NCBI RefSeq assembly: GCF_003019035.1
Contig: NZ_CP027447.1
Origin: Escherichia coli
GTDB lineage: Bacteria > Pseudomonadota > Gammaproteobacteria > Enterobacterales > Enterobacteriaceae
Length of the DNA: 64,000 bases
Strand: one strand, 5' to 3'
Shown here: positions 27,297 through 32,970 of the stretch, piece after piece
How the letters are laid out: every line of letters starts with the position of its first letter
How positions within the stretch are numbered: position 1 is the stretch's first letter
Position numbers and translations under genes: made by a program
The notes under the pieces: model-generated
Seen by the model: the letters and a program-made list of their open reading frames with translations, nothing else
The model's database searches: none
What the model was told of the DNA's origin: nothing

Positions 27297-27980
27297 ATGA
27301 ACCTAAAGAAAACACTGTTAAGCGTGTTAATAATAGTGCCTCTCTGCTTATTGGCAGGGTGTGACTATATTGAAAAAGCGAGTAAGGTCGACGACCTCGT
27401 TACACAGCAAGAGTTGCAAAAAAGCAAAATTGAGGCGCTTGAGAAACAACAGGAACTCGATAAGCGAAAGATAGAACATTTTGAAAAACAACAAACTACT
27501 ATCATAAATAGTACCAAGACGCTCGCTGGCGTGGTGAAGGCGGTTAAAGACAAACAGGACGAATTTGTCTTTACAGAATTTAACCCGGCACAAACCCAAT
27601 ACTTCATTTTAAATAACGGCTCTGTTGGTTTGGCAGGCCGGGTGCTGGCTATTGATGCAGTTGAAAATGGCAGCGTTATTCGTATTTCGCTGGTTAATTT
27701 ATTAAGCGTTCCCGTATCAAATATTGGCTTTCATGCGACATGGGGCAATGAAAGACCCACCGATGCCAAAGCTCTGGCAAAGTGGCAACAATTACTTTTC
27801 AACACCACACTGAATTCCACTCTGCAATTAATGCCTGGTCAATGGCAAGACATTAATCTGACATTAAAAGGCGTTTCGCCTAATAACCTGAAGTATCTGA
27901 AGTTGTCCATCAATATGGCCAATCTCCAGTTCGACACTGTTCAATCTGCTGAAACTCGGCAGCGAAAAAACAAAAAATAA
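27297..27980 (+). CDS. SadB-like coiled-coil lipoprotein (putative helper for the downstream trimeric autotransporter)
   Basis: 227-aa ORF; signal peptide with lipobox LLAG-C (Cys22); heptad-like coiled-coil segment QQELQKSKIEALEKQQELDKRKIEHFEKQQ; AAGGA Shine-Dalgarno; directly upstream of the adhesin gene. Confidence 0.6.
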   Translation: MNLKKTLLSVLIIVPLCLLAGCDYIEKASKVDDLVTQQELQKSKIEALEKQQELDKRKIEHFEKQQTTIINSTKTLAGVVKAVKDKQDEFVFTEFNPAQTQYFILNNGSVGLAGRVLAIDAVENGSVIRISLVNLLSVPVSNIGFHATWGNERPTDAKALAKWQQLLFNTTLNSTLQLMPGQWQDINLTLKGVSPNNLKYLKLSINMANLQFDTVQSAETRQRKNKK

Positions 27981-28023
27981 ATGCAGCTTCTGCGCTTATA
28001 TCAAGGAATAGAGAGCATCAATA

Positions 28024-31000
28024 ATGAACAAAATTTTTAAAGTTATCTGGAATCCAGCGACGGGCAGTTACAGCGTTGCCAGCGAAACGGCGAAAAGTCG
28101 TGGGAAGAAGAGCGGGCGCAGTAAGCTGTTAATTTCTGCACTGGTTGCGGGTGGATTATTGTCGTCATTTGGGGCATTAGCTCAGGCAGGGTTAGATACA
28201 GGTACTGGTGTTACCCCTGCTGGTCATAATAATGGAACAGGTTGGATAGCTATTGGTACCGATGCTGAAGCAAGCACTCATACCACAACGAATGGCGCAG
28301 CAACTGCCGTGGGCTACTACTCCAAAGCGTTAGGTATGTGGAGTACTACGTTAGGTGCATATAGCCAATCGAATGGCGATTCTTCACTGGCTCTTGGGGT
28401 TAAAGCACAATCTAACGGTGACCGCTCTATTTCGATGGGCGCTTCGTCGAGTGCAAGCATAAATGCGGGTTACTCCATCGCGATGGGGGTATTTGCTTTC
28501 ACCGATGCAGAGTACGCGGTAGCCCTTGGCAATGAGAGCAAGGCACTTGGTAAATACAGCCTTGCATTAGGAAACGCAAGTCAGGCATCTGGCGAATCCA
28601 GTATTGCATTAGGTAACACAAGTGAAGCCAGCGAACAAAATGCGATTGCGCTGGGGCAAGGCAGCATTGCAAGCAAAGTGAACTCAATCGCGTTGGGCAG
28701 TAACAGTTCGTCTGCAGGAGAGAATGCCATCGCGCTAGGAGAGGGCAGTGCCGCGGGAGGCAGCAACAGTCTAGCTTTCGGTAGTCAGTCCAGGGCAAGC
28801 GGCAATGATTCTGTCGCCCTCGGTGTAGGGGCTACAGCAGCGACCGACAATTCTGTCGCTATCGGCGCAGGATCGACCACAGATGCAAGCAATACAGTTT
28901 CAGTTGGCAACAGCACAACAAAACGCAAAATTGTTAATATGGCTGCCGGTGCCATAAGCAACACCAGTACCGATGCCATCAACGGCTCACAGCTTTATAC
29001 GATCAGTGATTCAGTCGCCAAACGGCTCGGGGGAGGCGCTACTGTAGGCAGCGACGGCACCGTAACCGCACTAAGCTACGCGTTGAAAAGCGGTACCTAT
29101 AATAACGTGGGTGATGCTCTGTCAGGAATCGACAATAATACTCTGCAATGGAATAGAACCACGGGGGCATTCACCGCTGCACACGGCTCAAATACCACCA
29201 GTAAAATCACTAATGTTGCTAAAGGTACTGTTTCTGCAACCAGCACCGATGTAGTAAACGGCTCTCAATTGTACGACCTGCAGCAGGATGCTCTGTTGTG
29301 GAACGGCACCGCGTTCAGCGCCGCACACGGCACCGACGTCACCAGCAAAATCACCAATGTCACCGCTGGTGAGCTCTCTGACACCAGCACCGACGCCGTC
29401 AACGGTTCTCAGCTGAAAGCGACCAAGGACGATGTAGCGGCAAACACCACCAACATCACTAACCTGACGAGCGAAGTGGCTGGCAACACCACCAGTATCA
29501 CTAACCTGACTGATACGGTGACTAACCTCGGTGAAGACGCCCTGAAATGGGACGACGCCGCAGGCGCATTCACCGCTGCACACGGCACTAACGCCACCAA
29601 CAAAATCACTAACGTCACCGCTGGTGAGCTCTCTGACACCAGCACCGACGCCGTCAACGGTTCTCAGCTGAAAGCGACCAAGGACGATGTGGCGGCAAAC
29701 ACCACCAACATCACTAACCTGACGGGCGAAGTGGCTGGCAACACCACCAGTATCACCAACCTGACTGATACGGTGACTAACCTCGGTGAAGACGCCCTGA
29801 AATGGGACGACGCCTCAGGCGCATTCACCGCTGCACACGGCACTAACGCCACCAACAAAATCACCAATGTCACCGCTGGCGAACTCTCTGATACCAGCAC
29901 CGACGCCGTCAACGGTTCTCAGCTGAAAACCACCAACGATAACGTGGCGACCAACACCACCAATATCGCCACTAACACCACCAATATCACCAACCTGACT
30001 GACGCTGTTGACAGTCTCGGTGATGATTCCCTGCTGTGGAACAAAGCGGCTGGCGCATTCAGCGCCGCGCACGGCACCGATGCCACCAGCAAAATCACCA
30101 ACGTCACCGCTGGCGAACTCTCTGATACCAGCACCGACGCCGTCAACGGTTCTCAGCTGAAAACCACCAACGATAACGTGGCGACCAACACCACCAATAT
30201 CGCCACTAACACCACCAATATCACCAACCTGACTAACGCTGTTGACAGTCTTGGTGATGATTCCCTGCTGTGGAACAAAGCGGCTGGCGCATTCAGCGCC
30301 GCGCACGGCACCGATGCCACCAGCAAAATCACCAACGTCACCGCTGGCGACCTGACTGCTGGCAGCACTGACGCGGTTAACGGCTCCCAGCTGAAAACCA
30401 CCAACGATAACGTGGCGACCAACACCACCAATATCGCCACTAACACCACCAATATCACTAACCTGACTGATACGGTGAATAATCTCGGTGAAGACGCCCT
30501 GAAATGGGACGACGCCGCAGGCGCATTCACCGCTGCACACGGTACTAACGCCACCAACAAAATCAGCAACGTACAAGCTGGCATAGTCTCCTCTGACAGC
30601 ACTGACGCCATAAATGGCTCACAACTATATGGTTTGGCTGATTCATTCACGTCCTATCTGGGTGGTGGTGCTGATATTAGCGATACAGGTTTATTAACCG
30701 GGCCAACCTATAGTATTGGCGGCACTGACTACACTAACGTCGGGGATGCTCTGGCCGCAATTAACACTTCATTTAGTGATTCTCTCGGTGATGCCCTGCT
30801 CTGGGATGCGACAGCCAATGACGGTGCTGGTGCATTCAGCGCCGGTCGCGGGGTAGATAACACCGCCAGTAAGATTACTAACGTCGCAAATGGTGCAATC
30901 TCTGCCACCAGCAGCGACGCGATTAACGGCTCACAACTCTATACCACCAATAAGTACATCGCTGATGCGCTGGGCGGTGATGCAGAAGTTAACGCTGACG

Positions 31001-32970
31001 GCACTATCACTGCGCCGACTTACACCATTGCAAATACCGATTACAACAACGTCGGTGAAGCTCTGGATGCGCTTGATGAGAACGCGCTGATGTGGGATGC
31101 GACCGCCAATAACGGCGAAGGGGCTTACAACGCCAGTCATGACGGCAAGGCCAGCATTATCACAAACGTTGCTGATGGTAACATTGGTGAAGGTAGCACC
31201 GATGCTATCAACGGTTCTCAGCTGTTTAACACCAATATGCTGATCCAGCAGAACAGCGAAGTCATCAATCAGCTTGCCGGTAACACCAGTGAAACCTACA
31301 TCGAAGAAAATGGTGCAGGTATTAACTATGTGCGTACCAATGACACCGGTTTAACCTTCACCGATGCCAGCGCACAGGGTGTTGGCGCTACAGCAGTGGG
31401 TTATAACTCTGTTGCCAAAGGCGATAGCAGCGTGGCCATGGGTTATAACTCTTTTGCCGAAGGCGATAGCAGCGTGGCCATGGGTCAGGGCAGCTACAGC
31501 GACGTTGATACGGGTATCGCTCTGGGTAGCAGTTCCGTTTCCAGCCGTGTAATAGTTAAAGGGTCTCGTGACACCAGCGTGTCAGAAGAAGGTGTTGTGA
31601 TTGGTTATGACACCACGGACGGCGAACTGCTTGGTGCATTGTCGATCGGTGATGATGGTAAATATCGTCAAATCATCAACGTCGCGGATGGTTCCGAAGC
31701 CCATGACGCTGTTACTGTTCGCCAGTTGCAAAACGCCATTGGTGCAGTAGCAACCACACCAACCAAATACTATCACGCCAACTCAACGGCTGAAGACTCA
31801 CTGGCAGTCGGTGAAGACTCGCTGGCAATGGGCGCGAAAACCATCGTTAATGGTAATGCGGGTATTGGTATCGGCCTGAACACGCTGGTTCTGGCTGATG
31901 CGATCAATGGTATTGCTATCGGTAGCAACGCAAGTGCAAACCATGCAAACAGCATTGCAATGGGGAATGGTTCTCAGACTACCCGTGGTGCGCAGACCAA
32001 CTACACCGCCTACAACATGGACGCACCGCAGAACTCTGTGGGTGAGTTCTCTGTCGGCAGTGAAGACGGTCAACGTCAGATCACCAACGTCGCAGCAGGT
32101 TCGGCTGATACCGATGCGGTCAACGTGGGTCAATTGAAAGTAACGGACGCGCAGGTTTCCCAGAATACCCAGAGTATTACTAACCTGAACAATCAGGTGA
32201 CGAATCTGGATACTCGCGTTACCAATATCGAAAACGGCATTGGCGATATCGTAACCACCGGTAGCACCAAATACTTCAAGACCAACACCGATGGCGTAGA
32301 TGCCAACGCGCAGGGTAAAGACAGTGTTGCGATTGGTTCTGGTTCCATTGCTGCCGCTGACAACAGCGTCGCGCTGGGTACCGGTTCCGTGGCCAACGAA
32401 GAAAATACCATCTCTGTGGGTTCTTCTACCAACCAGCGTCGTATCACCAACGTTGCTGCAGGTGTTAATGCCACCGATGCGGTTAACGTTTCGCAGCTGA
32501 AGTCTTCTGAGGCAGGCGGCGTTCGTTACGACACCAAAGCTGATGGTTCTATAGACTACAGCAACATCACTCTCGGTGGTGGTAATGGCGGTACGACTCG
32601 CATCAGCAACGTCTCCGCTGGCGTCAACAACAACGACGCAGTGAACTATGCGCAGTTGAAGCAAAGCGTGCAGGAAACGAAGCAATACACCGATCAGCGG
32701 ATGGTTGAGATGGATAACAAACTGTCCAAAACCGAAAGCAAGTTGAGCGGTGGTATCGCTTCTGCAATGGCAATGACCGGTCTGCCGCAGGCTTACACTC
32801 CAGGTGCCAGTATGGCCTCTATTGGTGGCGGTACTTACAACGGTGAATCGGCTGTTGCTTTAGGTGTGTCGATGGTGAGCGCCAATGGTCGTTGGGTCTA
32901 CAAATTACAAGGTAGTACCAATAGCCAGGGTGAATACTCCGCCGCACTCGGTGCCGGTATTCAGTGGTAA
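28024..32970 (+). CDS. upaG: Trimeric autotransporter adhesin (YadA/SadA-like; UpaG/EhaG family)
   Basis: 1648-aa ORF; extended signal peptide [29 protein letters not shown]...; many head/neck repeats (xNSVAxG, AINGSQL); C-terminal YadA-type anchor ending ...[11 protein letters not shown]. Gene name is by family resemblance (ehaG/upaG/sadA not distinguishable here). Confidence 0.9.
29311..30600 (+). repeat. Intragenic tandem repeat array in the adhesin stalk (about five units of 255 or 234 bp)
   Basis: Units begin at ~29311, 29566, 29821, 30055, 30289, 30523 with near-identical DNA (e.g. GCATTCACCGCTGCACACGGCACTAACGCCACCAACAAAATCAC...), encoding 85- or 78-aa repeats AAHGT(N/D)AT(N/S)[24 protein letters not shown].... 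Confidence 0.85.

Follow-up and report, generated by a model that had tools for sequence, protein, structure and literature searches.

A 64,000-nucleotide stretch of Escherichia coli DNA (contig NZ_CP027447.1; "the window" in what follows) carries on its + strand, at positions 27297-32970, two adjacent open reading frames (ORFs) as listed by program, one for a lipoprotein of 227 amino acids (aa) and one for an adhesin of 1648 aa, and neither frame contains an internal stop codon. An earlier note on this DNA had placed a 227-aa lipoprotein gene directly 5' of a 1648-aa adhesin gene between yibL and lldP, and its coordinates agree with ours to the base. The results described below lead us to read the segment, with a probability of about 93%, as an intact chromosomal operon of the sadBA type that encodes a UpaG-lineage member of the SadA/UpaG/EhaG adhesins together with a dedicated helper lipoprotein, SadB. 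The operon is intact, ordinary and already known, in that the system, its structure, its position, its deletion in K-12 and its variation among strains have all been published and the exact sequences have been deposited.

Genes and domains of the sadB-adhesin locus

Three features expected of a type Vc protein were found in the adhesin: an ESPR extended signal peptide at the N-terminus, a passenger made of heads, necks and coiled coils, and a C-terminal anchor of four strands per chain that closes on an aromatic residue (the protein ends in GAGIQW). Pfam searches returned about 14 YadA_stalk (neck) matches along the protein, in which 12 neck motifs were counted, and more than 10 YadA_head matches in total, three small internal head segments (residues ~1117-1171, 1291-1317 and 1424-1468) lying downstream of the distal head. 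An open frame of 1648 codons with domain matches at both its N- and C-terminal ends makes an origin by chance impossible. The strongest PDB matches were to crystallized fragments of Salmonella SadA, namely 2YO0/2YO1 (E=9e-139), 2YO3, 2YNZ, 2YO2 and 3ZMF, the last three matching residues 467-571. Identity reached 91% (234/257) between residues ~1236-1492 and the SadA part of 2YO0, and 78% (160/204) between residues 1371-1574 and 2YO3. The same search also matched other trimeric autotransporters (BpaC, AtaA, Hia, UspA1, YadA and EibD), with the anchor region matching the Hia anchor structures 3EMO and 2GR7. By contrast, NCBIfam similarity to Vomp, Ata, EmaA, BimA and YadA stayed sub-threshold, indicating that the adhesin is none of these. 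Judged by its sequence, the protein is thus a trimeric autotransporter adhesin of type Vc secretion, and its 78-91% identity to SadA fragments that crystallized as trimers suggests that it would be an obligate homotrimer at the cell surface. The exact 1648-aa sequence has several E. coli entries at NCBI, EEV5548427.1 among them; it lies on 51 contigs, of which the longest measures 5.17 Mb, and its cluster holds three further distinct members of 1648 aa. Three antisense ORFs within the adhesin gene (253, 295 and 165 aa) were rejected as genes, being shadow ORFs of a repetitive coding strand rich in Thr, Asn and Ala codons.

The lipoprotein starts with MNLKKTLLSVLIIVPLCLLAGC, followed by D. Its N-terminus reads MNLKKTLLSVLIIVPLCLLAG-C22-D23, in which the lipobox LLAG-C22 is followed at position +2 by Asp23, the residue for inner-membrane retention. 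Both the lipobox Cys and the Asp at +2 are expected of SadB, and the same rationale was given for the inner-membrane location of the Salmonella protein (Grin et al. 2014, PMC3953254). A search of PDB sequences with the lipoprotein gave a single match, the Salmonella SadB structure 4C47 ("inner membrane lipoprotein", E=7e-69), in which residues 23-227 aligned without a gap to chain residues 3-207 with 108/205 identities (52.7%). The two proteins are therefore colinear over the coiled coil and the MATH-like beta-sandwich, and a profile built from five SadB sequences matched 4C47 at E=2.8e-112. These matches assign the lipoprotein to SadB as an ortholog on sequence grounds. When searched against the PDB, the five-sequence profile reached 4C47 and chance coiled-coil matches, not the YajI structure 2JWY. 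This outcome is consistent with the 14% identity reported for SadB and YajI, whose paralogy needed HHpred and structure comparison to be recognized (PMC3953254). The protein is 100% identical to RefSeq WP_001562286.1, and its exact sequence lies on at least 1000 public contigs. Public names for the identical sequence disagree, ranging over "DUF3251 domain-containing protein", "SadB/YajI family lipoprotein", "hypothetical protein" and "outer membrane murein-binding lipoprotein Lpp".

Taken together, these results bear out what the earlier note had said of the two products, namely that the adhesin is a YadA-type trimeric autotransporter with an extended signal peptide and an anchor ending in W, and that the lipoprotein is SadB-like and contains a coiled coil. 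One of the findings named there as able to overturn its proposal, a lipoprotein unrelated to SadB, was looked at and is contradicted by the 4C47 match.

The features of the locus are collected in Table 1. The gene layout is that of the SadB operon, with sadB directly 5' of the adhesin gene and no terminator-like site on the + strand of the spacer between them, which at 43 bp is close to the 44 bp reported for Salmonella sadB-sadA (Grin et al. 2014, PMC3953254). The 558-bp upstream region holds no credible small ORF, and an Rfam scan of 26300-33400 gave no family at the gathering score. The candidate promoter, the best of the promoter-like sites, lies in one of the few conserved islands of this region; the EhaG-type upstream sequence (see below) has the same -35 hexamer there and differs slightly in the -10 hexamer (TAAAAT versus TAGAAT). 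The order of genes in the window is mtlADR-yibT-yibL-sadB-adhesin-lldPRD, followed on the 3' side by trmL; yibL and lldP were named by NCBIfam equivalog matches and the remaining neighbors by matching gene order in annotated genomes. The adhesin gene therefore lies between the mtl operon with yibL and the lld operon, the position that defines the SadA/UpaG/EhaG group of positional orthologs.

Table 1. Coordinates of the sadB-adhesin locus and its neighbors in the window
Feature	Position	Strand	Basis
yibL, 5' neighbor	26376-26738		NCBIfam equivalog, E=8e-57
AT-rich upstream region, 558 bp, 35.5% GC; presumed regulatory region of the operon	26739-27296	+	two haplotypes, few conserved islands
Candidate sigma-70 promoter, TTGACA-18-TAAAAT	27077-27106	+	11/12 consensus positions; predicted
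sadB, predicted inner-membrane lipoprotein, 227 aa; N-terminal coiled coil, C-terminal beta-sandwich domain	27297-27980	+	PDB 4C47 match
sadB-adhesin spacer (operon junction)	27981-28023	+	43 bp, read from the sequence
Adhesin gene, 1648 aa; UpaG-lineage allele of the SadA/UpaG/EhaG positional ortholog group	28024-32970	+	domains and identity
ESPR extended signal peptide, residues 1-48	28024-28167	+	Pfam PF13018, E=2.1e-15
Distal YadA-like head, residues 117-297; most variable part	28372-28914	+	seven YadA_head (PF05658) matches
Stalk repeat array, residues 442-845; two 85-aa and three 78-aa units	29347-30558	+	Tandem Repeats Finder, one YadA_stalk match per unit, unit sequences
One 78-aa unit, residues 612-689 (234 bp), missing in the SCU-301 protein	29857-30090	+	global alignment
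Membrane-proximal stalk, conserved, residues 1201-1587; includes two small internal YadA-like heads with necks	31624-32784	+	identity to UpaG, EhaG and SadA fragments
YadA-like membrane anchor with its final W and the stop codon, residues 1588-1648	32785-32970	+	Pfam PF03895, E=2.4e-19
Intrinsic-terminator-like hairpin, 13-pair stem then TTCTTT	32994-33023	+	24 bp past the adhesin stop; same hairpin after yibL in K-12
lldP, 3' neighbor	33247/33268-34923		NCBIfam equivalog

Relatives, haplotypes and proposed function

UpaG of E. coli CFT073/Nissle (1778 aa) was reportedly described by Valle and co-workers in 2008, EhaG of E. coli O157:H7 (1588 aa) by Totsika and co-workers in 2012, and the SadA/SadB pair of Salmonella enterica (STM3691 / STM3690; PDB 2YO0, 2YO3, 2YNZ, 4C47) by Hartmann and co-workers in 2012. 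The genes that RefSeq annotates as upaG in Nissle and as ehaG in O157:H7 occupy the same site in the same order as the adhesin gene of the window, each preceded by a DUF3251 / SadB-YajI lipoprotein gene, in agreement with the arrangement of sadB-sadA and of the UpaG/EhaG locus that the earlier note had recognized. Four E. coli strains were compared with the window. In SCU-301, the closest complete RefSeq genome, the adhesin (1570 aa) is 100% identical apart from a 78-aa gap and SadB is 100% identical. The corresponding values are 85.7% and 88% in Nissle (UpaG, 1778 aa), 73.2% and 65.8% in O157:H7 (EhaG, 1588 aa), and 74.3% and 65.2% in REL606 (1616 aa). Identity is graded along the adhesin: the anchor is 100% identical in all four strains, the anchor and membrane-proximal 450 aa (residues 1201-1648) together are 88-100% identical to UpaG and EhaG as expected within the SadA/UpaG/EhaG group, and the repeat array and distal head fall to 27-67%.

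UpaG shares with the adhesin of the window the locus yibL-sadB-adhesin-lldP, the domain grammar, the upstream haplotype and 97-100% identity over residues 1201-1648. However, the protein of the window is 130 aa shorter, with 12 neck motifs against 13, and its alignment to the 1778-aa protein contains 232 gap positions. It does not qualify as UpaG in the strict sense of the RefSeq/PGAP name. EhaG is likewise a positional ortholog with an identical anchor and 88-99% identity over residues 1201-1600, whereas its head and repeat array are 27-67% identical in 100-aa blocks with large gaps, its SadB is the more distant one, and its upstream region belongs to the other haplotype. The NCBIfam set that was searched contains no UpaG or EhaG model. 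With Salmonella the likeness extends to a two-gene operon between the mtl and lld operons, to a colinear SadB that keeps the lipobox and the Asp at +2, and to a membrane-proximal stalk 78-91% identical as judged on the solved SadA fragments. By contrast, SadA has 1461 aa (PMC11054257), and its distal passenger and repeat numbers differ. The nearest relatives remain the SCU-301 proteins (WP_169057765.1 and WP_001562286.1), from which the window differs by one additional 78-aa unit in the adhesin.

The cassette and its 558-bp upstream region (26739-32991) fall into two deeply diverged E. coli haplotypes, a UpaG-type shared by the window, SCU-301 and Nissle, and an EhaG-type shared by O157 and REL606. 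Divergence between them starts at the first base past the yibL stop codon and fades toward the anchor, and within SadB the coiled coil is 32-60% identical between haplotypes while the C-terminal domain is ~85% identical. Of 5426 complete E. coli genomes, 4154 (~77%) contain the final 691 bp of the adhesin gene, as a single copy that is always chromosomal. Megablast found the sadB/ESPR segment in 1940 genomes, fewer because the EhaG-type haplotype has diverged in this segment although it still carries sadB. The flanking core genes (mtlD-yibL and lldP-lldD; 23300-36900) are ~92-97% identical to those of K-12, O157, REL606 and Nissle and ~99% identical to those of SCU-301, a divergence which could reflect either the origin of the window in a comparatively divergent lineage of E. 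coli or recombination of the region.

Several observations weigh against the sadBA-type reading. The lipoprotein has no significant match in Pfam-A or NCBIfam profile searches, and membership in the DUF3251 / SadB-YajI profile was the only testable defining feature of SadB that failed. What carries the SadB assignment is therefore the direct match to the sequence of the SadB crystal structure, which in our judgment outweighs the failed membership in a profile hidden Markov model. RefSeq and other public records name this allele and its nearest relative "YadA-like family protein" and not UpaG or EhaG. Residues 101-200 of the distal head share no more than 51% identity with UpaG and 43% with EhaG, so that binding specificity is not transferable from either protein. 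The promoter is a consensus match in a scan that gave 9 sites against ~8 expected by chance, the conditions under which the Salmonella operon is natively expressed are reported as unknown (PMC3953254), and what can be said of expression and function of this allele comes entirely from its orthologs.

Work on these orthologs suggests how the operon may operate. sadB and the adhesin gene would be co-transcribed from the AT-rich upstream region, probably under repression by H-NS, with transcription stopping at the hairpin downstream of the adhesin gene. SadB would be lipidated at Cys22, held by the Asp at +2 in the inner membrane facing the periplasm, and assembled into a trimer via its N-terminal coiled coil. 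The adhesin would be exported by Sec through its ESPR signal peptide, and three C-terminal anchors of four strands each would form one 12-strand barrel assembled by BAM, which the three passenger chains would cross to fold outside into a fiber of alternating heads, necks and coiled coils. With SadB, more of the fiber may be displayed and more of it correctly folded, and the fiber in turn would let cells adhere to extracellular matrix and to epithelial cells, autoaggregate and form biofilms. In Salmonella, sadBA is an operon and SadB an inner-membrane trimer with which more, and more intact, SadA is displayed, as determined by immunofluorescence, flow cytometry and protease resistance (PMC3953254); the improvement in display was put at approximately three-fold (PMC11054257). 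For UpaG and EhaG, a passage of PMC7247748 lists extracellular matrix binding, aggregation and biofilm formation, with cell tropism differing between the two.

An intact operon could nevertheless be silent, that is, cryptic and H-NS-repressed such that it contributes nothing under most conditions, or it could be in the course of being lost, as happened in K-12. The AT-rich upstream region is compatible with this possibility, as are the repression of UpaG by H-NS stated in a passage of PMC5012682 that cites Totsika 2012, the lack of known native inducing conditions (PMC3953254) and the ~23% of complete genomes without the anchor region. However, the repetitive frame of 4947 bp is open and the C-terminal 450 aa are conserved across diverged haplotypes and, in the stretch matching 2YO0, with SadA, indicating purifying selection. 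The exact allele also recurs on 51 contigs, and orthologs elicit immune responses in vivo and produce phenotypes upon expression (PMC7247748). We therefore regard a silent operon as rather unlikely, although it is the strongest of the competing explanations.

Stalk repeats and length variation

Tandem Repeats Finder detected two repeats within 29310-30572, one of 255 bp in 2.6 copies and one of 234 bp in 3.6 copies, which correspond to the units of the stalk array. The two 85-aa units (residues 442-526 and 527-611) are identical at 249/255 nucleotides, and of the three 78-aa units (residues 612-689, 690-767 and 768-845) the first two share 231/234 nucleotides. Each unit opens with a neck (KITNV...VNGSQL), continues as a coiled coil rich in Asn (NTTNITNLT) and includes a connector with "DALL"-like and "AAHG" motifs; the module names (neck, DALL, AAHG connector) follow the SadA literature. 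Because a BLASTP comparison of the adhesin with itself gave no off-diagonal rows, the units were delimited by motif positions and Pfam matches.

Global alignment of the adhesin with the SCU-301 protein gave 1570/1570 identities and one gap of 78 residues. Since units 612-689 and 690-767 are near-identical, naming either one of them as the extra unit is arbitrary. Adhesin lengths of 1570, 1588, 1616, 1648 and 1778 aa across the five strains agree with the earlier proposal that stalk length and repeat content vary between strains, and the differences in fiber length would arise by gain or loss of whole 78/85-aa neck/coiled-coil units between near-identical DNA repeats. Whether such changes have been put to use is a further question: we hold it doubtful that unit gain and loss by unequal recombination between these 97-99% identical repeats of 234/255 bp acts as an adaptive tuner of fiber length to O-antigen or capsule thickness, jointly with a co-adaptation of SadB and adhesin behind the two haplotypes.

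Near-identical tandem repeats also raise the possibility that the extra 78-aa unit at 29857-30090 was created during assembly. Only 3 of 234 nucleotides separate the first two 78-aa units, SCU-301 is one unit shorter, and many members of the adhesin 90% cluster are "partial" entries of 489-625 aa, indicating that short-read assemblies commonly break within the array. However, the exact 1648-aa sequence occurs independently on the 51 contigs mentioned above, one of them 5.17 Mb long, under several NCBI accessions, and the cluster contains three more distinct proteins of the same length. An assembly artifact is accordingly very unlikely.

Conservation of the site and the K-12 deletion

The earlier note had described the cassette as inserted between yibL and lldP, and this is the part of its account that did not hold. 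In K-12 MG1655 the gap between yibL and lldP is 371 bp, with neither sadB nor the adhesin gene in it. K-12 is homologous to the window as far as the yibL stop codon (26739) and again from 32992 on. In Nissle, O157 and REL606, a spacer containing a repetitive extragenic palindromic (REP) element lies 3' of the adhesin gene; most of the intervening 95 bp in K-12 match this spacer, and the K-12 extract is 99.7% identical to REL606 from its position 5089 on. K-12 thus keeps the REP-containing spacer and the terminator which elsewhere are found 3' of the adhesin gene, indicating that its state is a deletion. K-12 is a deletion derivative and not an ancestral empty site, in line with Grin et al. 2014 (PMC3953254), who report the deletion of the operon in K-12 and, for Escherichia, Salmonella and Shigella, its location between mtl and lld. 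Combined with the occupation of the site in ~77% of complete E. coli genomes, these results contradict the word "inserted".

We also considered the opposite reading, in which this strain acquired the cassette horizontally, as an island entering between yibL and lldP, and the K-12 arrangement is the ancestral empty site. Such a reading could draw on the guanine-cytosine (GC) content, which at 35.5% in the upstream region and 41.4% in sadB is well under the 51-55% of the flanking genes, on the short distance between yibL and lldP in K-12, and on the abrupt parting of the haplotypes at the first base past the yibL stop codon. However, the anchor region sits at one chromosomal site in the 4154 genomes and never on plasmids, the same mtl-lld position is reported for Salmonella and Shigella (PMC3953254), and the REP spacer and terminator kept by K-12 are as in REL606, O157 and Nissle. 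No integrase, tRNA or direct-repeat border was found at the cassette, and surface genes controlled by H-NS typically have promoter regions of low GC; the values for the upstream region and sadB are not evidence of recent insertion. A recent island with an ancestral K-12 state thus has very little in its favor, and a mobile island was rejected in view of borders free of mobility genes and tRNA, a conserved site and the signature of a deletion in K-12.

In O157:H7, REL606 and K-12, a REP-type element of ~70 bp lies between the adhesin stop codon (the yibL stop codon in K-12) and the terminator hairpin, flanked by the direct repeat CTAAGGGCAA (compared extracts: L003 8672-8763, L005 8672-8763, L002 5030-5124). 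Its bracketing by this repeat suggests insertion or excision of the element there. The corresponding interval of the window, 32971-32993, lacks the element.

The idea that the lipoprotein is an unrelated Lpp-like or coiled-coil protein with no part in adhesin biogenesis, for which the one public record naming it Lpp and the missing Pfam or NCBIfam family could be cited, is scarcely credible in view of the ungapped full-length alignment to 4C47 (strengthened by the five-sequence profile), the gene order and 43-bp spacing kept in all strains inspected, and the loss in K-12 of the lipoprotein gene along with the adhesin gene.

Elsewhere in the window, positions 11531-19635 form an rhs locus. Its RHS core protein has 1346 aa (11531-15571), and the locus also encodes a transposase of the ISAs1 family (17185-18321) and an orphan C-terminal fragment of Rhs (18336-19109). 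An unannotated 173-aa ORF that follows this fragment (19114-19635) could be its immunity gene. Two Rfam matches at the gathering score were obtained in the window: naRNA4, a REP-derived nucleoid-associated RNA, at 1942-2020 (+), and a JUMPstart element at 62711-62749 (-), which judged by its position heads an apparent lipopolysaccharide-core (waa) cluster.

The results call for three corrections of annotation, which leave the current understanding of the system unchanged. The genes should be named sadB and UpaG-lineage trimeric autotransporter adhesin instead of "DUF3251" and "YadA-like family protein", and K-12 at yibL-lldP should be described as a deletion and not as a site awaiting insertion. 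The third concerns the stalk, in which alleles that are otherwise identical differ in the number of repeat copies; values taken from short-read assemblies, which often break in the array, are unreliable. UpaG-type adhesins are of interest as vaccine candidates against extraintestinal E. coli, as scaffolds for surface display and as model substrates for BAM-dependent assembly.

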